Notes: a model not told the origin generated them from the sequence alone. A DNA stretch of 64,000 bases from an uncultured Clostridia bacterium (GCA_944375955.1 CALWBE010000027.1:28227-92226); one strand, 5' to 3'; shown: positions 33,470 through 43,196, counted from the stretch's first letter. Numbers and translations are program-made.

Positions 33470-34264
33470 TTAATTTATCATAGTTCTGTAATTTTTAGGA
33501 GAAACTCCAAAATGTTTTTTAAATACGGTTGAAAAGTAATATATGTTTTCAAATCCGCATATTTCGACAATTTCAGATATAGTGTAGTGACCTGTTATAA
33601 GAAGTTCTTTTGCCTTGTCAAGTTTTAGCATTGTGACATACTTTACAGGAGGCATACCGTATTTTTTTATAAAAATTTCTTTAAAATAATCATATGACAA
33701 AGATGATTCAGCACACATTTTTTTATAATTGAAACCGCGCTGAGTAAAGTGCTTTATCATATAATTGTAAGAAGGCAGTATTTTTTTTGCTTGAATATCA
33801 GTAAAATAACGGTTAGTGTGTTTTTTTATCTTTTTTATAATATCATAAAATATAGACATGCATTCAGAATAAAATCCTAATTCTTTGGAATTCCAAATAT
33901 TATATATTTTTGTAAAAAGCGGCTTTAATTCATTCATATTTTTTAAACTTACTGCATAATCAGGCATCTCATCAAAAGTGTCAAAGAAAATATCTATACA
34001 TAAGGATGACGCTATTTTTTCAACAGTATATTCTCCCCCGGAGATGTCTTTCGGCAAATATCTTATAGAGTTTGCCGTATCTTTTAACATGTTGCCGTTG
34101 AAACAAGTCAATAATTCACCTGAAATAAAGAAAATAAGCTCATATGCAGATAATTTTGAAGGATAGTGAATTATATTTTTAATACTGCTGTCCGTTTTCA
34201 TTTCATACATATTTACAGTATATATTTTTGAAATGTTTATTATTTCATTTTCAAACAGATACAA
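33470..34264 (-). CDS. AraC family transcriptional regulator (divergent from the glycyl-radical enzyme gene)
   Basis: 264 aa. C-terminal AraC HTH (SLSYDYFKEIFIKKYGMPPVKYVTMLKLDKAKELL...GFENIYYFSTVFKKHFGVSPKNYR). TTG start 8 nt after GGAGGTG. Confidence 0.88.
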   Translation of the reverse strand: MYLFENEIINISKIYTVNMYEMKTDSSIKNIIHYPSKLSAYELIFFISGELLTCFNGNMLKDTANSIRYLPKDISGGEYTVEKIASSLCIDIFFDTFDEMPDYAVSLKNMNELKPLFTKIYNIWNSKELGFYSECMSIFYDIIKKIKKHTNRYFTDIQAKKILPSYNYMIKHFTQRGFNYKKMCAESSLSYDYFKEIFIKKYGMPPVKYVTMLKLDKAKELLITGHYTISEIVEICGFENIYYFSTVFKKHFGVSPKNYRTMIN

Positions 34265-34419
34265 ATTATAAACACCTCCGAATTTTATTATATTAAATAT
34301 TTTCTCAAAGTCAATAAAAATCCTTATAAATTATAAAAACATTAAGTTATATATTTACATTTTATTGATAGGCAAATATAATTCATATATCATCCTTAAA
34401 GAACGGGAGAATCAGCAAA

Positions 34420-36543
34420 ATGACTGAGAGAATAAAAAAGCTTTCCGATATGACGGTAAAAGGTGAAATGTATATTGAGCATACAGAAACAAAATATGAC
34501 AGAAAAGATATTTTTTTGCCGCCTGTTATAATGAGTGCGAAAAGATCTAAGGAATATATATTGAATCAAAAGCCGTATGTCAGCGAATATACAGCTCTTA
34601 CGGGATATTTGCGTTTTAACGGTGATGTTATGGGAGATATTTTTAACCGTAACGGTCACCGGAACTATAAGATGCTGATGGATAATTTTTATAATAAACC
34701 GGTTGATGGACTGTGTACTTTTGAATGGCAGCACAGCGTTGCGGATTTTGAAAAAGTAATAAAAATAGGAATAAAAGGCTTCAAGGCGGAAATTGAAGTT
34801 TCAAGGGTAAATCATACAGATAAAGAAAAAAAGGATTTTTTGGATGCACTTGATATAATAGCTGACGCAATTATCGGATGGGCTGAAAAATGTTCTGCTG
34901 CTGCGCGCATAAAGTCATTGGAAGTTGCCTGTCCCGAATATAAAGCAAATCTTATAAAACTTTCTGATGCTCTTTGTAAAGTGCCTGCAAATCCGGCTGA
35001 AAGTTTTTACGAGGCGGTTTTAACTCTTTATTTGATATATGCTTTTGTACCTGACAGTATAGGAACTATAGACAGATATTTATATTCGTTTTATAAAAAA
35101 GATATAGAAAACGGAGTCCTTACTAAAGAGGAAGCAAAGTCATATTTGCAGGAACTTTTTTTAATGCTTCAAGCGAGAGTATCAATAAAATCAGACCGTT
35201 TTTATAGAGGAGGCGAATCCCATTTTTGTATCGGAGGCTATCTTGAAAATGGTGAGGATGGGTTTAATGAGCTGTCAAGGCTTATTCTTGACAGTCTGCT
35301 TGAGCTTCCCACATGGATCCCGCAGATTTCTCTGCGCTGGACGAAAAAAACTCCCGAGGACGTTTTAAAATATGTTATGGACTGTGAAAGAAAGGATCCC
35401 AATAAAAGAATAGCTTTTGTTAATGACGAACCGAGAATAAAAGCGTTTATGGAGATAGGCGGTTTTCCATATGAGCTTGCCTGTAAATATACTATGGTAG
35501 GGTGTAACGAACCTCAGCTTCCAGGTGGGATTTTTATGGGCGGATGCTATGCGAATATAGCAAAATCAATAGAAAATACTCTTTATAACTGCGGTGACGA
35601 GATATGCGAGGCAGAAAATTTTGAGGATTTTTATAAAATTTTTGAAAGAGAATTGTATAGTACAATAAAACTTTGTACGGATTATTACAACAAATTCCAA
35701 TCTGTAAGGGCAAGAGATATAAATTTAGTAAGTACAATGTTTTTTGAGGGTTCAATAAAACGTGCTGAAAGTATAACCAGAGGCGGCGCCGAGAATGCTG
35801 TTGCTGACCTCAGTTTTATTGGAATAATAACTGTTGTCGACTCACTTTCGGTAATAAAGCAATTCGTTTATGTAGAAAAGAAAATATCAATGAAAACTCT
35901 CTTAGAGGCTCTTAGGGCAAATTGGAACGGATATGAGATTCTGCATAGTGATATACTGAAAAACGGCAGGTTTTTCGGGAATGATGACGAAATCTCAAAT
36001 TATTGCGCATATAGATTTGCATGCAGTGTGTCAGAATATTTTAAAGATAAGCGGACTGATATGGGTTATAAATTTATGATAGGCAATCTTATAGGCTACA
36101 ATCAACATCATAAATGGTTTGGAGATTATGTAAGAGCCACTCCTGACGGCAGATTAAACGGAGAAATGATATCATATGGCATAGGGCAGAATAATGGGAA
36201 AGACAGAGAGGGGCTTACGGCGCTTTTAAGCTCTGTTGCCAAGCTGAATTCACATGTGATTTTTTGCGGGGAGACTGTAACTAATGTTTTTATTGATGAA
36301 CAGCTTGTAAAGAACGATAAAAATTTTGAAAAACTTGTAAAACTGTTTGAGACATATTTTAAATTGGGAGGGCTGCATTATCAGCTGAATTATGTGTCAA
36401 AGGAGGATTTGAGAAACGCGCAGACAACGCCGGAAAAATACAGGAATTTAAGAGTGCGCGTGTCCGGTTTTTCAGATTACTTTATATTTCTCAATGAAGA
36501 TTTGCAAAACGAAATTATATCAAGGACCGAAAAGTCAATATGA
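34420..36543 (+). CDS. Glycyl radical enzyme (PFL-like fold), short form, substrate unknown
   Basis: 707 aa. The C-terminal glycyl-radical motif is RVRVSGFSDYF (Gly683). The candidate thiyl loop is TMVGCNEPQ (Cys362, Glu364). A dedicated activase gene follows. Confidence 0.85.
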   Translation: MTERIKKLSDMTVKGEMYIEHTETKYDRKDIFLPPVIMSAKRSKEYILNQKPYVSEYTALTGYLRFNGDVMGDIFNRNGHRNYKMLMDNFYNKPVDGLCTFEWQHSVADFEKVIKIGIKGFKAEIEVSRVNHTDKEKKDFLDALDIIADAIIGWAEKCSAAARIKSLEVACPEYKANLIKLSDALCKVPANPAESFYEAVLTLYLIYAFVPDSIGTIDRYLYSFYKKDIENGVLTKEEAKSYLQELFLMLQARVSIKSDRFYRGGESHFCIGGYLENGEDGFNELSRLILDSLLELPTWIPQISLRWTKKTPEDVLKYVMDCERKDPNKRIAFVNDEPRIKAFMEIGGFPYELACKYTMVGCNEPQLPGGIFMGGCYANIAKSIENTLYNCGDEICEAENFEDFYKIFERELYSTIKLCTDYYNKFQSVRARDINLVSTMFFEGSIKRAESITRGGAENAVADLSFIGIITVVDSLSVIKQFVYVEKKISMKTLLEALRANWNGYEILHSDILKNGRFFGNDDEISNYCAYRFACSVSEYFKDKRTDMGYKFMIGNLIGYNQHHKWFGDYVRATPDGRLNGEMISYGIGQNNGKDREGLTALLSSVAKLNSHVIFCGETVTNVFIDEQLVKNDKNFEKLVKLFETYFKLGGLHYQLNYVSKEDLRNAQTTPEKYRNLRVRVSGFSDYFIFLNEDLQNEIISRTEKSI

Positions 36544-36605
36544 AATAAAAAAACGGCGTTTAAATGCCGATAATTTTGTAAGTTATATATGTTAAAGGAA
36601 TAAAA

Positions 36606-37454
36606 ATGAAAGCCATAATATTTGATATTCAAAGAAGTTCTTTCGTTGACGGGCCCGGTATACGGACAACAGTATTTTTTAAGGGTTGCAATCTCAGGTG
36701 TAAATGGTGTCATAACCCGGAAAGCCAAATCATAAAACCGCAGATCATGTTTTATAAAAGCAAATGCATTTCCTGCGGGAAGTGCAGGGAAGCATGCCCG
36801 AACAACATGGAAAAATGCGACATGTGCGGAAAGTGTACATACGCTTGCCCAAACGGCGCAAGAAGAATATGCGGCAGGGAATATACTATAAGTGAAGTTT
36901 TAAAAGAGATTTTAAAGGATAAAGCATTTTATGAGACATCCGGCGGAGGAGTTACATTTTCCGGAGGAGAGTGTATGCTTCAAATAGATTTTCTGGAAGA
37001 GATTCTAAAAAAATGCAAAGAAAATAAAGTTCACACAGCAGTTGATACAGCTGGTTGTATTCCATGGGAATATTTTCTTAAAATAATGCCTTATACAAAT
37101 TTATTCCTTTATGATGTAAAATGTTTTTCTGATAAATTGCATATTTTGGGAACAAATTATTCAAATAAACTCATTCTTGAAAATCTTAAGAAGCTTTCAG
37201 ATGAATTTTTAGGAGATATAATAATAAGAATTCCGGTTATCGGAGGTTTTAATGACGATACAGCCGAAATAAGAAAGATATGCGGTTTTATAAAAAGCCT
37301 TAGAATAAAAAATACGGAGATTCTGCCGTATCATAAAATGGGAGAATATAAATATGAAGCTCTTGGCATGAAAGCTTTAAAATACAAAGTTCCGGATCCT
37401 AAAGAAATAAAGCGTTTAAAAGAAGTTTTTTGCAACATTCAACAAGGGGAATAA
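36606..37454 (+). CDS. Glycyl-radical enzyme activating protein (radical SAM, with ferredoxin-like insert)
   Basis: 282 aa. FFKGCNLRCKWCHNPE radical-SAM triad, plus two extra cluster motifs (CISCGKCREACP and CDMCGKCTYACP) and the GGVTFSGGE motif. Confidence 0.9.
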   Translation: MKAIIFDIQRSSFVDGPGIRTTVFFKGCNLRCKWCHNPESQIIKPQIMFYKSKCISCGKCREACPNNMEKCDMCGKCTYACPNGARRICGREYTISEVLKEILKDKAFYETSGGGVTFSGGECMLQIDFLEEILKKCKENKVHTAVDTAGCIPWEYFLKIMPYTNLFLYDVKCFSDKLHILGTNYSNKLILENLKKLSDEFLGDIIIRIPVIGGFNDDTAEIRKICGFIKSLRIKNTEILPYHKMGEYKYEALGMKALKYKVPDPKEIKRLKEVFCNIQQGE

Positions 37455-37520: not shown

Positions 37521-37853
37521 TTAATATTTTGTATTAAGGTCTTTTTCTGACGGCGCAGTGTTAAATAGCTTTTTATATGCCTTGTAAAATCCTGAATAAT
37601 CGTTAAATCCGCATTGCATAGCAGCCTGCATGGGAGGTGTCGAGTTTTTTATTTTCTGATTTGCGGCGGTAAGTTTTTTCTTCAATATATATTGATATGG
37701 TGAAATATGCAAGTTTTTTTTAAATTCGTGAGATAAATATGAGACAGAAATATGCAAATAATCTGCAACTGTGCTTATAAGAAAGGTCGTAGAATATGCA
37801 AAGTATTTGCCGGTAGGAAAACGAGGCATATCAACAAACAGAGCGCATACCAT
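37521..37853 (-). pseudogene. AraC family regulator fragment (C-terminal HTH half only)
   Basis: Only the DNA-binding half is recognisable (VADYLHISVSYLSHEFKKNLHISPYQYILKKKLTAANQKI...GFNDYSGFYKAYKKLFNTAPSE). No sensor domain is present. The upstream part of the ORF is read-through into the aldolase fragment on the other strand. Confidence 0.7.
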
Positions 37854-38232
37854 GTATAATCCTCCAGAACTTTTGAAGTATATTAAAGAAGCAAATGAAA
37901 GGATGAAAATATATGCTCAGATAGAAACAAAGCTTGGGTTTGATAATATAGATGATATACTTAATACTGAAGGTGTAGACGGTATTTTTATAGGACCTAA
38001 TGATTTGGCAGCTGATTTAAATTGCATAGGAGATAAAAATATAATTTTGTCATATCTGGAAAAGGCGGGAACAGCTGCGAAAAAAGCCGGTAAGCCTTGG
38101 GGAATAATTACTACGGATAAAGAGTTTACGGAACATTCTAAAAAATATGGATTAGGCATGATATCTTATGGCAACGAGATAAACATGCTGAAAAATGAAA
38201 GTGAAAGAATAAAGGAGATGTTACAATGGTAA
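37771..38232 (+). pseudogene. HpcH/HpaI aldolase family fragment (C-terminal about 60 percent only)
   Basis: AKYLPVGKRGIS...IYAQIETKLGFDNIDDILNTEGVDGIFIGPNDLAADL matches the central and C-terminal part of HpcH/HpaI (class II) aldolases. The roughly 100 N-terminal residues are missing, and no plausible start or RBS exists. Confidence 0.65.
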
Positions 38233-39263
38233 AAAACATAACAATAAAGCAGATATGCAGCTCCAGCTTATGCTGTGAGCCGATCTTAAGAAAAACTGCA
38301 AACGGAGATCTTCTGTGCATTTGCCAGCTTGACGGACCTTACGAACCGCATATTGAAAACAGAGTATATGCTTTTCATAGCAGCGATAACGGAGTTACAT
38401 GGTCTAACAGCGGGAAGATATATCCCGAGGATGGACAGGCGGTTTATTGCACTGAAGTATCTGTTTCTGGAAATGAAATATCGGCATATATCACTGTTCA
38501 TAGCGGCAGTTTTCTTGATTGGAAATGTTTTGTTATGAAAAGTTTTGACAATGGATATAAGTGGATAAATGCAGGTACGCCGCCATGTTTGCCCGAATAT
38601 ACATTTATTAGAGGAAGAATTGTCGCTGCAAACGGAAATATAATTATACCTTATCAGAATTATCCGGTAACAAGGGAAGAACATGACAGAATATTGCGTG
38701 AGGAGACTGATAAAGCTGTATTTGTGAATACAAAAACAGAGTACTGTGAAAGTGGAGTTATTTTGAGCTGTGACGGTGGAAAGACATATGAAAGATATCC
38801 TGCCTGTCGTATGGATATGTCAGACGGATGGATATGGTCTGAGCCGACAATTGCAGAGCTTTCTGACGGAACGATAGTAATGTTAATGAGAAAGTGCAGA
38901 AGCGGATGGCTGTGGCGGTGCGATTCATATGACGGAGGAAAAAGTTGGAGCGAATGCCGGAAGACCGATATTCCCAATCCTTCAAATAAACCCAAATTGA
39001 TTAAAATCGATGAAAAACGGATAGCTTTGCTGAATACGCCTAATAACTATGGAATGGCGGAAAACAAATCAACATGGGGGCAGAGATATCCGCTTGAGCT
39101 GTGGATAAGCGATGACGGTATGAAAACCTGGGGCAGCAAGACGGTACTTACAGATTTCCCGGGAAGTTATTCATATTCTGATGGTTTTTATGAAGACGGT
39201 CATATAAAATTCAGTATTGAACATAACAGACATACGGCACTGTTATTTGATGTTGAATTATAA
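38226..39263 (+). CDS. BNR/Asp-box repeat beta-propeller protein (sialidase-like fold), cytoplasmic
   Basis: 345 aa with no signal peptide. Five Asp-boxes: SSDNGVTW, SFDNGYKW, SCDGGKTY, SYDGGKSW, SDDGMKTW. AAGGAG RBS. It overlaps the aldolase fragment end by 7 nt. Confidence 0.8.
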   Translation: MVKNITIKQICSSSLCCEPILRKTANGDLLCICQLDGPYEPHIENRVYAFHSSDNGVTWSNSGKIYPEDGQAVYCTEVSVSGNEISAYITVHSGSFLDWKCFVMKSFDNGYKWINAGTPPCLPEYTFIRGRIVAANGNIIIPYQNYPVTREEHDRILREETDKAVFVNTKTEYCESGVILSCDGGKTYERYPACRMDMSDGWIWSEPTIAELSDGTIVMLMRKCRSGWLWRCDSYDGGKSWSECRKTDIPNPSNKPKLIKIDEKRIALLNTPNNYGMAENKSTWGQRYPLELWISDDGMKTWGSKTVLTDFPGSYSYSDGFYEDGHIKFSIEHNRHTALLFDVEL

Positions 39264-39374: not shown

Positions 39375-40274
39375 TTATTTATATTTAAACTGCTGTGAAG
39401 CATATCCGCAAGAGCGGCAAAGAGCCTCACATTCTTTTTTGCCTTGAAAAGAGCTTATGATATCCAATGCGCGCTTTGATGAAAGTATTTTTTCAAGATC
39501 ATTTTCGAAGATATTACCTAAAGACATGACTCCGTCGGCGTCAAGACAACAAGGAACGACTGTACCGTCGCACAGTATTCCTATCTGATCTCTGATTGCA
39601 TAACAAAAAGTAGGACCGGCATTAAATTTGCCGGTGTTTTTTTGATTTGGCCACTTAAATTTTTTTCCGAATTCAAGATACACTTCTTTTTCCCCGAGCG
39701 GGGCATTAAAAAGCTTAAAACCGGAACGGTTTTTAATCCAGCCATCAGGGAAAAGCATATGAAGCTTTTCAAGAAAAATATCATTTTTTTTATCTTTATC
39801 TTCTTCTATGTTCCACAATCGTAAAACGCATATTACGTTTGTATCTGAACACTTTTTCGCAAAGTCCGCTGCGTTTTTAATATATTTTTCAAATTTTTCT
39901 CCGGTTATCTGAGAGGGAGCGGATTCTATAATATCTGCTGCCTGAAGCGAGATGCTTACTTTTTTTATATCTCCTGTTTTGTATATAAAATCTCCTTTTT
40001 CCTGCAATAAAGTCCCATTTGTTGTAAGCATAACCTCAAATCCGCAAAGACGCGCAGCATGAGCCATTTCTGGCAAGGCTTCATTAAGCAGAGGTTCGCC
40101 CATGAGATGAAGATATAAATATTTTGCCTTACCCTTTATTTTGCCGAGTATAGTTAAAAACTCCGCATATGTCATAAAGCGTTTTTCACGGCTTGTCCCA
40201 TGGCAGAAAGAACACGAAAGGTTGCATACGTTATTTGTCTCAAGATATATTTTTGTAAGTTGGTTTTTATTCAT
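39375..40274 (-). CDS. Radical SAM protein with C-terminal Cys-rich SPASM/twitch-like domain
   Basis: 299 aa. YLETNNVCNLSCSFCHG radical-SAM triad. The C-terminal cysteines are CYAIRDQIGILCDGTVVPCC...ECEALCRSCGY. The start codon overlaps the stop of the upstream PduB-like gene (ATGA). Confidence 0.82.
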   Translation of the reverse strand: MNKNQLTKIYLETNNVCNLSCSFCHGTSREKRFMTYAEFLTILGKIKGKAKYLYLHLMGEPLLNEALPEMAHAARLCGFEVMLTTNGTLLQEKGDFIYKTGDIKKVSISLQAADIIESAPSQITGEKFEKYIKNAADFAKKCSDTNVICVLRLWNIEEDKDKKNDIFLEKLHMLFPDGWIKNRSGFKLFNAPLGEKEVYLEFGKKFKWPNQKNTGKFNAGPTFCYAIRDQIGILCDGTVVPCCLDADGVMSLGNIFENDLEKILSSKRALDIISSFQGKKECEALCRSCGYASQQFKYK

Positions 40275-40987
40275 TTTATATATGACGTACCCGGAGATTT
40301 TGGTATGCTTCCAAGTGCCGTTAGCATTTCCATACCGATTCTGCGGGCTGAGATTACAGCTTCTTTTACACTGTCAGTTTCTCCTGCAAATGCAATTATA
40401 ACTTCATTTGAAAAGCTTGTGCCGTTTTTAGGAGACATATATTTTAAAAGTTTTACCGGAAATTCTTTCATAATACGGTCAGCAAGTACAAAACCTATTG
40501 CGGCAGGGGAAGCGGCGGCAAAGCCGAAAGCTTTATTTTCGGGAGCGCCAAATGCTTTTTTTAATGCTTGTCCGGCACTGGATGAAAAAGCAAATTCAAG
40601 ATGACCGGCATCGCTTATATATACTTCTCCGGCATTTTTCTCGGTGAGCTGCAAAGAAATTTCAACCGCGCGCCGAGTATCGGAAACCGTTTCTCCGCCT
40701 ATTACTATAAAATTTCCATGACCGCCCCAGCCTTTGGTATCGCGTGGAAGTTCTATAGATATTATTTCTGTGTCAGTTGACTTTACAGCTTCATCTGCGG
40801 CAATTATCTGCCCTGCAGCGCCTGTTCGTGAGGAAATAAGTCCGACCGCCGAAATATTTTCGGGTATACCGGCAGCTTTTTTAAGTTCACTTTCAACAGA
40901 GGGAATAATAAGACCGATCGTATCAAGAAGTGTAACGCCGACAAATTCGGGCTGAGAGCATTTGCCGAAAAGCGTTTCGTCAATCAT
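40271..40987 (-). CDS. PduB/EutL-type tandem-BMC-domain (BMC-T) shell protein homologue, orphan
   Basis: 238 aa. It is collinear with PduB as I remember it: EFVGVTLLDTIGLII, LISSRTGAAGQIIAADEAVKSTDTEIISIELPRDTKGWGGHG, AGHLEFAF, KAFGAP, GTSFSNEVII, SARRIG...LGS.PK...SYI. GGAGGG RBS. Confidence 0.8.
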   Translation of the reverse strand: MIDETLFGKCSQPEFVGVTLLDTIGLIIPSVESELKKAAGIPENISAVGLISSRTGAAGQIIAADEAVKSTDTEIISIELPRDTKGWGGHGNFIVIGGETVSDTRRAVEISLQLTEKNAGEVYISDAGHLEFAFSSSAGQALKKAFGAPENKAFGFAAASPAAIGFVLADRIMKEFPVKLLKYMSPKNGTSFSNEVIIAFAGETDSVKEAVISARRIGMEMLTALGSIPKSPGTSYIK

Positions 40988-41057: not shown

Positions 41058-42059
41058 TTATCTCATTCCTATAGAAGCAAGATATTCATCCATTCTTTTA
41101 TTTGAACCGGAAGGATCGCTGAAACGATAATCTTTAGGAAGATTAGACAGTTCGTAAGAAAGACCTTCCTTTAGGGTCTTAAAATTTTCTTGCTTCAAAC
41201 CGGCTACATCAAGAATTTTTGAATTGTCTATAATTCGGTTAAACAATCTGTCATATTCAAGTTGCCATACAGTATGCATATTTCCGGGCATTATTATATC
41301 AGTATATATTTTTTTATCTGTAAAAATATATTTCAATCCTATGATCTCTGAATAATATTCAGCAATTTCTCGCCAGCTGTGATGCTCTGAAGTTGAAAAT
41401 GTAAAACTTTCACAGTATGCGCGAGGATTTAAAATTATGCCTGCAAACATTTTGGCGACATCTCCTGCCCATGTCATTGTGCCCTGTATATCGGCAGCTT
41501 CTTTAGGAAGCACTACGGTTTTTCCTTCGCGTGCACGGTTTATAACGCACGGCGCCTCAAGTGTTACAAGCTGATAGCGCTTTTTTGAATAAGTTATTGC
41601 GGGACGTACAATAGTCCAATTTTTATATTCTGAGTTTTTAAGAATATCTTCACCGCGGGCTTTGTAAAGAGCATAATCCTCTGTAGCAAGAAATTCACGG
41701 TCGTTTGAAACGTCTAAAAGACGAGGAGAATTTTCGGTTATAGGATAATTCCCGGCATATATGCGGTATGATGACAGATAGATATAGTGCTGTGTAGATT
41801 CAAGAAATATTTTGTACCTTTCGCGGAATTCTTCAGTACTATAAATGAGAAAGTCAATAATTGCATCATATTTTTCATCAAGTATTTTTTTCAGCGTGTC
41901 AATATTTTTCATATCCGCTTTTATATATTTTGGATTGTCTGATGTTGCATCAACATCATCAAGAGAGGGGACAACGACAGAATAACCGCGGTTTACAAGT
42001 TCGGGAACGACATAAACTCCCATGGCGCCGGTACCGCCGATGACAAGAACTTTTTTCAT
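41058..42059 (-). CDS. NAD(P)-dependent epimerase/dehydratase-type (extended SDR/NmrA-like) protein
   Basis: Rossmann motif KKVLVIGGTGAMGVYVV. Start set to ATG 42059 (AAGGTG 9 nt upstream) rather than the GTG at 42071, which lies inside that RBS. Confidence 0.75.
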   Translation of the reverse strand: MKKVLVIGGTGAMGVYVVPELVNRGYSVVVPSLDDVDATSDNPKYIKADMKNIDTLKKILDEKYDAIIDFLIYSTEEFRERYKIFLESTQHYIYLSSYRIYAGNYPITENSPRLLDVSNDREFLATEDYALYKARGEDILKNSEYKNWTIVRPAITYSKKRYQLVTLEAPCVINRAREGKTVVLPKEAADIQGTMTWAGDVAKMFAGIILNPRAYCESFTFSTSEHHSWREIAEYYSEIIGLKYIFTDKKIYTDIIMPGNMHTVWQLEYDRLFNRIIDNSKILDVAGLKQENFKTLKEGLSYELSNLPKDYRFSDPSGSNKRMDEYLASIGMR

Positions 42060-42234
42060 GTTATTATTCACCTTTCATAAAATATTAAATAGTTTATTTC
42101 AAATATTCGCGGGATCGACGAAAGTATATCATTTAAAAATAAATAAGTAAAGTATTTTAGACAAATAAAAACGTTTATTATAAAAAATAATCGTTTATTG
42201 TAAATATATTATAGATTTTTAAAAGAAAAAAGTT

Positions 42235-42996
42235 TTAACTTAAACTTTCATTTTTAAATTTACCGGGCGTATATCCGGTTTCTTTTTTAAAACGATTAGA
42301 AAAATATTTTTGATCTGAAAATCCGCACATATAAGCGACTTCGGAAACAGTGTAGTATCCGGAGCGCAAAAGGTCGCATGCACGTGAAATTCGAAGTTTT
42401 GAAATATATTTTGACGGGCTTATATTAAAATGGCTCTTAAATATACGCCTGAAATAAACCTCGCTTACATTTGAAGCGTCAGCAGCATCTTTAATACGGA
42501 AAAAGGTATCGGCGAAATTTTCTTTTATAAGTTCAGTCCCTTTTAGTATGTTTTTGGGTATTTCAGACATGTTGTCATCATATGCTGATGTCAAATAGAG
42601 AATCTTATAAAAAACAGAAAGAGCTTGAGTGCGGTATCCGCATTCTTTTTTTTCCCAAATATCGAATAATTTTAAAAACAGACCGTCAAATAGTATTTTA
42701 TCATTGCAGTTAAGAAGTTTAATACCGTCAGTTTTTCTGCCGCCGACTGTATCAAAATGAACGGCTATTATTTCATCATAATTTGTTTCCTGAGAGTATT
42801 TTGTGTTGTTTCCTATAAGAACAGCAGAATGTTCCCTAACTGTAAACTTGTTATTTTTGTATTCAAATATTGTATTTCCCCTAAGTCTGTACCCAACGCA
42901 TAAAAAGCCTCTTGGCTCTGTTGAAAATTTTGATTTTTCACGTTTTGCTTTAAATACGCCTTTTATTATGATTGGTTCACCGTCTTCAAGTATCAT
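42235..42996 (-). CDS. AraC family transcriptional regulator (divergent from the GH13 gene)
   Basis: C-terminal AraC HTH (NVSEVYFRRIFKSHFNISPSKYISKLRISRACDLL...GFSDQKYFSNRFKKETGYTPGKF). Start set to ATG 42996 (AAGGTG RBS). Confidence 0.85.
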   Translation of the reverse strand: MILEDGEPIIIKGVFKAKREKSKFSTEPRGFLCVGYRLRGNTIFEYKNNKFTVREHSAVLIGNNTKYSQETNYDEIIAVHFDTVGGRKTDGIKLLNCNDKILFDGLFLKLFDIWEKKECGYRTQALSVFYKILYLTSAYDDNMSEIPKNILKGTELIKENFADTFFRIKDAADASNVSEVYFRRIFKSHFNISPSKYISKLRISRACDLLRSGYYTVSEVAYMCGFSDQKYFSNRFKKETGYTPGKFKNESLS

Positions 42997-43196
42997 TTTT
43001 TCACCTTTTAACAAAGTATAAAAATTCAAAATATATAAAAGTCTTTAGTTTATAGAATTTTAGCATACGAAATTATGGGTGTCAAGTTTCGGTTTTTAAA
43101 CTTTTTGTATCAAAATAAGGGTTGATTCAGCGGATTTAGGTTGTTATTATAATTTTGTGAAGAATATTAAAAGAAAAAAATGGAGAGATTTTCTGT

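Follow-up and report, generated by a model that had tools for sequence, protein, structure and literature searches.

Glycyl radical enzymes (GREs) drive anaerobic reactions in the gut that affect the host, among them the formation of trimethylamine from choline, of H2S from sulfonates and of p-cresol and skatole, and the use of hydroxyproline. Which reaction is catalysed by the GRE encoded in a 64-kb stretch of DNA from an uncultured Clostridia bacterium (GCA_944375955.1, CALWBE010000027.1:28227-92226; this whole stretch is called the window below)? The gene lies in a cassette at positions 33470-37454, together with genes for a GRE-activating radical SAM enzyme (activase) and for a divergently transcribed regulator of the AraC family; its product has only 707 residues and a Cys loop that reads G-C-N-E. 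Whole clades of GREs remain unvalidated (PMC13450708). We conclude that the cassette encodes a genuine GRE–activase system, with the catalytic apparatus of an eliminase, in a separate, compact and uncharacterised clade. The three genes probably constitute a self-contained, substrate-inducible cassette for a GRE of the 1,2-eliminase/isomerase type.

The cassette encodes a genuine glycyl radical enzyme and its activase

Open reading frames (ORFs) were called in the window and their products were scanned with Pfam and NCBIfam profiles. In agreement with a preliminary description of the locus, ORF calling and a script check returned the three genes, their motifs, a spacing of 321 residues between Cys362 and Gly683 and a gap of 155 bp between the regulator and GRE genes (Table 1). 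All three reading frames are intact. The length of the GRE is genuine, as the ORF cannot be any longer and the ATG is preceded, 10 nt upstream, by a GGGAG sequence; moreover, 108 of the 120 best homologues have 705-709 residues, with an invariant Met1. A family alignment was made of 44 members of 57-79% identity. Invariant in this alignment are the fingerprint R-V-S-G683-F (RVxG[FWY]; Pfam PF01228), in which G683 aligns to Gly765 of HypD, the loop residues Cys362, Asn363 and Glu364, His105, and the segments R263-G-G-E-S-H-F269 and G555-N-L-x-G-Y560.

Structure prediction, one of the checks proposed at the outset, gave a confident GRE fold. The AlphaFold2 model built on the 44-member alignment (pLDDT 90.5, pTM 0.90) agrees with the fold typical of GREs, a ten-stranded beta/alpha barrel in which the Cys loop meets the Gly loop. 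Foldseek matched the model with a probability of 1.00 to about 50 GRE chains, and it superposes on essentially all PFL-like GREs of solved structure (TM-score 0.75-0.81, 21-25% identity); the scores for HypD, propanediol dehydratase (PD), glycerol dehydratase (GD), HplG and CutC, all about 0.8, are within noise of one another. In the activase, the script check located the CX3CX2C motif and two ferredoxin-like CxxCxxCxxxC motifs starting at residues 54 and 71. The protein scores 333 bits against the GRE-activase family TIGR02494 (cutoff 174), and its top equivalog, the HypD activase, reaches 332 bits, below the cutoff of 425. Given the PFL-like and Gly_radical domains, the model and its Foldseek scores, an activase above its family cutoff and the divergent AraC gene, we conclude that the 707-residue protein is a real GRE.

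Could it be a catalytically dead or decaying paralogue in an eroding region? Fragments of an AraC gene and an aldolase gene lie directly downstream, and the window copy lacks the short-chain dehydrogenase/reductase (SDR) gene of many orthologues. We find this hardly credible, however, in view of the three intact frames and of the conservation of Gly, Cys, Glu and His together with about 120 further columns that are invariant across the 44 homologues of different genomes, with length kept within 2 residues. In addition, an identical GRE with the same activase occurs in an independent metagenome assembly, and neither the promoter nor the ribosome-binding site nor the operator-like box is damaged. 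The Gly and Cys positions, whose misalignment had been named as the sign of a dead copy, align properly, as does the Glu position. The invariance of the catalytic residues in the family suggests an active enzyme.

A compact clade in gut Clostridia

Relative to GD (787 residues) and HypD (789 residues), about 60 residues are missing before strand beta-1 (residue 105 of the window GRE lies opposite residue 164 of GD) and internal loops account for about 20 further missing residues; among these, one 8-residue deletion takes out the loop with Trp277 and Asp278 of HypD. The N-terminal 100 residues that are present are conserved, and the model shows them with confidence as four short helices. In GREs the dimer interface is conserved and is made up of the helices that come before the barrel (PMC13450708). 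The compact architecture could reveal N-terminal elements that the GRE fold can do without.

A word-indexed search returned a large set of unnamed proteins of the same length, 56-100% identical to the query. In an exhaustive HMMER search of 1.84 billion cluster representatives (50% identity), only about six full-length sequences aligned from residue 1, at 33-50% identity; beyond these, identity fell to 29-35% and the alignments started at query residues 100-105, and therefore the first 100 or so residues are clade-specific. A neighbour-joining tree of the 127 nearest representatives grouped 13 sequences with a G-C-N-E loop and one with G-C-H-E in a single clade of 14, separate from the other representatives. 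All 14 have 678-728 residues, compared with a median of 787 for the other 113. These comparisons place the window GRE in a monophyletic clade of short (about 680-730 residues) GREs with a G-C-N-E loop. The initial view of a short protein with a reduced N-terminal region thus stands, but shortness is not singular to the clade, as 14 uncharacterised representatives outside it also have 690-730 residues. Two proteins of solved structure, PDB 38la and 38lb (687 and 739 residues, both named 'formate acetyltransferase'), gave a weak match of 28-29 bits that extends only to about query residue 610; they may belong to another short or non-canonical GRE-like group and are unrelated to the G-C-N-E clade.

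When one genome of each GTDB species was scanned, at least 259 species-level genomes proved to encode a relative. All of the 80 loci that were kept come from metagenome-assembled or uncultured-isolate bins from human (Hadza, Nepal), ruminant and bird guts, and are labelled Clostridia, Oscillospiraceae, Acutalibacteraceae, Christensenellales, Acetatifactor, Eisenbergiella or Ornithomonoglobus, with two given only as 'bacterium' or 'Firmicutes'. The closest named homologue, P0002 (79% identity), was deposited as 'MAG: Alphaproteobacteria bacterium'; none of the 80 loci is proteobacterial, and mis-binning or an error of taxonomy probably explains the label. Among the papers searched, none characterises the short G-C-N-E clade. 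A 2026 review that lists the isomerases and the eliminases acting on C-O, C-N and C-S bonds has among them no clade member, no enzyme of fewer than 760 residues and none with Asn between the Cys and the Glu (PMC13450708).

Active-site residues and reaction class

The signature of GRE eliminases and isomerases is C-X-E, in which X is free, the Cys carries out hydrogen-atom transfer and the Glu hydrogen-bonds the substrate hydroxyl (PMC13450708). In alignments with HpsG, IslA, IseG, HypD and CutC, Cys362 falls on the catalytic Cys and Glu364 on the catalytic Glu of all five. By alignment, X is Thr in HpsG and IseG, Ile in IslA and Val in HypD and CutC; among the cluster representatives it is Val in 39, Asn in 13, Thr in seven, Ile in six, Tyr in five, Met in four and His in three. 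Because the signature leaves X free and IseG and HpsG already have Thr there, the Asn, which the preliminary description had singled out as unusual, is not a mechanistic anomaly; the alignments identify it as a marker of the clade.

In known enzymes an acid/base residue on beta-1 faces the leaving group (His164 in GD, His166 in PD, His160 in HypD and Asp216 in CutC), and His105 takes this place in the window GRE. Local alignments to GD (1r8w) and PD (5i2a) begin at His105, opposite the catalytic general-acid His residues 164 and 166, and His196 of IslA is also aligned to it. A long CutC-like representative (P0184, about 1,130 residues, in length like the long Klebsiella-type CutC) has Asp at this position, as does CutC with Asp216. 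Taken together, Cys362, Glu364 and His105 point to a reaction in which hydrogen is abstracted from a carbinol carbon and a vicinal leaving group is then lost. The cap-helix segment F-Y-R-G-G-E-S-H-F, which the sequence alignments place where GD, PD and CutC carry Phe, suggests that the substrate is polar or charged.

Regulator and control region

The AraC-family protein, 68% identical to the AraC protein beside the orthologue at locus L070, is the presumed dedicated regulator of the cassette. Two promoter-like sites, predicted from consensus matches only, are arranged back-to-back in the control region. Upstream of the site for the GRE gene lies the box AAATTATAAAA, a candidate operator half-site, which with at most one mismatch and in the same orientation is found in 24 of the 68 intergenic regions between AraC and GRE or SDR genes. 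In 19 of these 24 loci it is placed 71-81 nt before the GRE start codon, and the GREs there are 48-100% identical. When one mismatch was allowed, 199 same-strand matches were counted in the loci, and 27 of them fall in the intergenic regions, which account for 1.7% of the locus sequence; 16 exact copies lie inside these regions, as against 36 on both strands of the 1.10 Mb of locus DNA. Alignment of the upstream regions by eye revealed a shared layout of GTCAA, about 14 nt, (C/T)ATAAATTATAAAA, about 15 nt, TTTACA, 17 nt and TATAAT. The placement of the box just upstream of the -35 hexamer would fit a class II activator site for AraC. The hairpin between the GRE and activase genes is possibly a partial terminator, which would lower expression of the activase relative to the GRE. 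Together, the linked AraC gene and the conserved promoter box provide a practical biosensor route to the substrate.

Table 1. Positions of the features of the cassette and its surroundings in the 64-kb window.
Feature	Position	Strand	Remarks
AraC-family regulator, 264 aa	33470-34264	-	TTG start; divergent from GRE; Pfam HTH_18 9.8e-19, HTH_AraC 1.5e-13
Divergent control region, 155 bp	34265-34419		AraC-GRE gap
AraC promoter-like site	TTGACT from 34314; TATAAT hexamer ending 34287	-	Promoter scan, 11/12 consensus match
Box AAATTATAAAA, candidate AraC operator half-site	34328-34338	+	15 nt upstream of GRE -35 hexamer
GRE promoter-like site	-35 TTTACA 34354-34359; -10 TATAAT 34377-34382	+	Promoter scan, 11/12 consensus match
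GRE ribosome-binding site GGGAG	34405-34409	+	10 nt before ATG
GRE, 707 aa	34420-36543	+	Pfam PFL-like 2.2e-84, Gly_radical 1e-22
GRE His105	34732-34734	+	Invariant in family
GRE cap-helix motif R263-G-G-E-S-H-F269	35206-35226	+	Invariant in family
GRE Cys loop G361-C362-N363-E364	35500-35511	+	Within TMVGCNEPQ; C362-N363-E364 at 35503-35511
GRE Gly loop R-V-S-G683-F	36457-36471	+	Within RVRVSGFSDYF; Gly683 at 36466-36468
Short G+C-rich hairpin CGGCGTTTAAATGCCG, then weak T-run	36554-36569	+	Terminator-like scan match, between GRE and activase
Activase, 282 aa	36606-37454	+	Pfam Radical_SAM, Fer4_12, Fer4
Activase CX3CX2C motif C28NLRC32KWC35	36687-36710		
AraC fragment, 110 aa	37521-38232 (shared region)	-	Helix-turn-helix domain only
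HpcH/HpaI aldolase, C-terminal two thirds	37521-38232 (shared region)	+	Profile positions 99-213 of 221
BNR_2 (sialidase-fold) gene	38226-39263		Intact
PduB/SPASM region	39375-40987, with 41058-42071 and 42235-43029	-	NAD-epimerase and another AraC gene just upstream

Genomic context of the relatives

ORFs were called in 83 non-redundant loci and clustered by BLAST. A divergent, homologous AraC gene is present at 71 of the 83 loci, an activase gene follows the GRE gene at 46, and a classical SDR of about 249 residues is encoded at 37 (about 45%), either between AraC and GRE or just after GRE. No gene beyond this AraC-GRE(-activase)-SDR core is conserved across the 83 loci, and therefore the cassette is the functional unit. 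Distant members of the clade (33-44% identity) keep AraC, GRE, activase and SDR, sometimes with a PTE-family gene or with CapA and an ABC transporter.

The more sporadic neighbours include a PepV-type M20 dipeptidase (eight loci), a PTE-family hydrolase (six), a beta-lactamase-fold hydrolase (five), an EamA transporter (four), and CapA-like and Kelch-like proteins (three each). A PepD-type M20 dipeptidase occurs at L007, L012 and L034 (at L034 by BLAST clustering), with an OPT transporter at L007 and L012, and many related loci are set among glycoside hydrolase and sugar genes. The neighbourhood comparison, which had been recommended as a check, thus qualifies the earlier remark that no pathway gene is adjacent: this is so in the window, but not in the orthologous loci, where the SDR, the dipeptidases and the PTE-family hydrolase recur. 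Naming the substrate of the SDR through solved structures was tried and abandoned, since only generic matches to FabG, butanediol dehydrogenase and alcohol dehydrogenase were obtained (1e-21 to 1e-29).

An alignment of the GREs of all loci distinguishes at least four subgroups, which have the invariant motifs in common and differ at residues 374-379, the region of HypD Tyr450 (Table 2). Because this motif behind the Cys loop differs between subgroups, transfer of context across the family is only partly justified. Tandem paralogues of different subgroups are found in single genomes (L056, L069 and L090), and the substrates of the subgroups are probably related without being the same. At L061 (1-11000) and also at L046, L048, L055, L056, L069, L080 and L090, AraC-GRE-activase cassettes follow one another in twos or threes. 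These cassettes include other uncharacterised GREs of 744-762 residues with G-C-Y-E loops, 24-29% identical to the window enzyme, and look like a radiation of AraC-coupled GREs in gut Clostridia lineages.

Table 2. Subgroups of the GREs at the related loci.
Subgroup	Residues 374-379	Identity to window GRE	Associated genes
A (includes the window GRE)	GGCxxN	65-100%	SDR in two loci; PepD-type dipeptidase in two, one with adjacent OPT
B	GFDPMN	54-60%	SDR almost always
C	SNSKxN	52-56%	PTE, PepV-type dipeptidase, CapA, beta-lactamase-fold hydrolase, SDR
D	GSAQEN	57-58%	Activase only

Proposed function and alternatives

We infer the following radical chemistry, reaction class, induction by AraC and role for the SDR. 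AraC would sense the substrate or a related metabolite and activate the GRE promoter through the AAATTATAAAA box. The activase would take a hydrogen atom from Gly683 to leave a stable glycyl radical, which would move to Cys362 in each turnover. The Cys362 thiyl would then take hydrogen from the carbinol carbon of a polar, hydroxylated small molecule, with Glu364 deprotonating the substrate hydroxyl and His105, at the position of GD His164, aiding the departure of the vicinal leaving group, most likely OH. Return of hydrogen from Cys362 to the product radical would give a carbonyl product. Where present, the SDR might reduce this product or, instead, make the alcohol substrate. The function predicted as the most likely is a radical reaction that brings about 1,2-elimination (or isomerisation), with a polar hydroxylated metabolite as the substrate.

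Several points weigh against this proposal. The window cassette has beside it no aldehyde dehydrogenase, transporter, SDR or downstream enzyme that would define a physiological pathway, and neither an SDR of the orthologue type nor another accessory gene was found elsewhere in the 64 kb. At subgroup A loci the activase gene is often not adjacent to the GRE gene, and context clues from subgroups B and C may not transfer to the window enzyme. Every clade member is known from its sequence alone, with a predicted function, and the pocket was deduced from alignments, which at about 25-30% identity are unreliable in loops. Finally, C-X-E, with its Glu two residues after the Cys, is also found in the arylacetate decarboxylase HPAD, so that the motif alone is no proof of elimination.

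Together with a fold that is common to all GRE classes, this last point would be compatible with a decarboxylase of the HPAD, IAD or PhdB type, a formate-lyase or an X-succinate synthase. We regard an enzyme of any of these classes as very improbable, since in the sequence search of solved structures HPAD (126 bits), BSS (133) and PFL (59) score far below the eliminases and the PFL profile TIGR01255 gives 78 bits against a cutoff of 994. Moreover, PFL has an adjacent Cys-Cys pair whereas the window loop, V-G-C-N-E, has a single Cys preceded by G361, and no small subunits adjoin the GRE gene in the window or at the related loci.

An isomerase resembling YbiW, PflD or HplG would use the carbinol radical for ring opening, by C-O or C-N cleavage, and would give an isomeric keto product without loss of water. 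Such enzymes share the C-X-E loop and the initial steps with the eliminases (PMC13450708). The Foldseek matches to HplG (7vua, TM 0.80), PflD (8id0, 0.78) and YbiW (8id7, 0.79) are as good as those to the dehydratases; the sugar and glycoside hydrolase genes around many related loci are in keeping with an isomerase, and a keto product would suit the SDR. In the sequence search, however, the three isomerases score only 150-174 bits, compared with 224-253 for HpsG, IslA and HypD, and kinase, aldolase and phosphotransferase genes are not consistently linked. Eliminases and isomerases cannot be separated from sequence, and we consider isomerisation of this kind unlikely.

For the eliminase that we favour, the substrate very likely differs from all known GRE substrates. 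Tentatively, the clade might act on a substrate class new to GREs, while its rebuilt N-terminus (about 60-80 residues shorter) may alter the helical dimer interface; if this is true, the motif subgroups, at least four in number and often tandem paralogues, represent a family of related new activities. One candidate substrate is a hydroxylated amino acid from dipeptides, as PepD- and PepV-type M20 dipeptidases and the OPT transporter recur, and another is a sugar lactone or lactam derivative, as genes for PTE-family hydrolases, beta-lactamase-fold hydrolases and CapA-like proteins are found repeatedly in subgroup C. Assignment of the substrate would bring to light an anaerobic transformation that at present goes unseen in fibre-adapted gut communities. 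The system is a well-defined target for enzyme discovery and will not surprise the specialist, given that many GRE clades are uncharacterised and that the established mechanism is unbroken.

Surroundings of the cassette

The AraC and aldolase fragments directly downstream of the cassette overlap head-to-head by 83 bp (Table 1), and look like the product of one deletion in which AraC lost its sensor domain, the aldolase lost its N-terminus and the intergenic region disappeared. The 110-residue AraC fragment was also considered as a conserved small gene and rejected, since its cluster mixed contig-end and truncated AraC ORFs. BNR_2 genes lie within a few kilobases of the GRE gene in the window, at L001 (3190-4323) and at L004 (6285-8030). 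They are about 23% identical to one another and are not in the same operon as the GRE; their proximity is probably a coincidence in carbohydrate-rich genomes. A further BNR/sialidase-fold link was dismissed, as the 343-residue product encoded between GRE and activase at L001 is unrelated to the window BNR protein and is Kelch/DUF6923-like.

An orphan PduB-type shell gene of the BMC-T type (bacterial microcompartment, BMC; TIGR04501, 312 bits, cutoff 310) is encoded 2.8 kb beyond the downstream end of the cassette, on the other strand. It overlaps the start of a radical SAM/SPASM gene by 4 bp, a pairing of a lone shell protein with a SPASM maturase. No BMC-H or BMC-P homologues (PduA/EutM, EutN) were found in the 64 kb, and no BMC homologues in the approximately 90 related loci. 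Loci of GRE-associated microcompartments encode the GRE together with BMC-H, BMC-T and BMC-P shell proteins and an aldehyde dehydrogenase. A microcompartment link through the PduB-type gene was consequently rejected.

Comparison with characterised glycyl radical enzymes

Is the window GRE a divergent orthologue of a characterised enzyme, such as GD, PD, HypD, CutC, IslA, IseG or HpsG? Its NCBIfam equivalog scores of 162-306 bits, against cutoffs of 1000-1150, are each below a third of the cutoff. The top equivalog is HpsG (NF048011; 306 bits, cutoff 1000), and HypD (NF043068) gives 279 against 1100 and CutC (TIGR04394) 248 against 1050; the PFL2/glycerol-dehydratase subfamily TIGR01774 gives 281 bits with a cutoff of 678. 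Among solved structures the best sequence matches are HpsG (253 bits, 3.8e-74), IslA (250) and IseG (234), followed by HypD (224), and the enzyme is about equally distant from all solved GREs, at 21-25% identity. The identity of these best matches, the top equivalog of the activase and the automatic name 'trans-4-hydroxy-L-proline dehydratase' given to a JGI homologue (P0088) are what favours orthology. We judge it highly unlikely, in view of the profile scores, the absence of shell genes at the related loci, the position of the clade, monophyletic and apart from other representatives, and the residue differences described below. The profile scores, the distances to solved structures and the tree therefore uphold the proposal of the preliminary description that the enzyme represents an uncharacterised subclass of GREs, accompanied by an activase of its own and a divergent AraC regulator.

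The sulfonate lyases HpsG (6LON), IslA (7KQ3) and IseG (5YMR) resemble the window GRE in the barrel fold, the Gly loop and a C-X-E loop with aligned Cys and Glu; IslA also has a His at the position of GD His164, and IseG and HpsG share a polar X (Thr). They are about 100-120 residues longer, mostly at the N-terminus, and the alignments accordingly start at query residues 98-107 opposite target residues 167-191. The sulfonate anchors R187 of IseG and Q193 and R678 of IslA correspond to L98, E102 and N556, so that the Arg/Gln/Arg triad is absent, and no sulfite-handling genes are found near the cassette. CutC differs in carrying Asp216 on beta-1 in place of His105. YbiW, PflD and HplG have in common with the window enzyme the C-X-E loop, the fold (TM 0.78-0.80) and an origin in gut bacteria near sugar or amino-acid catabolism genes; they differ in their lower sequence scores and in the dedicated residues with which they bind their substrates, and the window-type loci have no linked kinase, aldolase or thiolase genes.

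In GD (1R8W) and PD (5I2A), Cys433/Glu435/His164 and Cys438/Glu440/His166, respectively, are equivalent to Cys362/Glu364/His105, with a Foldseek TM-score of 0.79. Structure-based identity is only 23-24%, X is Val there and Asn in the window GRE, and the microcompartment context is missing here. Whereas GD, PD and CutC have a Phe (Phe333, Phe338 and Phe389, respectively), the window GRE has the polar, charged cap-helix motif RGGESHF.

HypD (6VXC/6VXE), the top Foldseek match (E 1e-39, TMq 0.80), is likewise an enzyme of gut Clostridia; its Cys, Glu and Tyr450 (Tyr377 in the window GRE) are aligned, and its product is reduced by a partner reductase. In contrast, the window GRE is 82 residues shorter than native HypD, the loop with the essential Asp278 and with Trp277 is deleted, and Ser334, Asp339, Phe340 and Thr645 are replaced by Asp259, Gly264, Glu266 and Asn561. 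Because the equivalog scores are below a third of the cutoffs, identity is 21-25% and the protein lacks the residues on which specificity depends in the sulfonate lyases, HypD and CutC, the comparisons indicate that the window GRE is not an orthologue of any characterised GRE. Its substrate is predicted to be neither of the glycerol/1,2-propanediol type handled in a microcompartment nor hydroxyproline, choline or a sulfonate.

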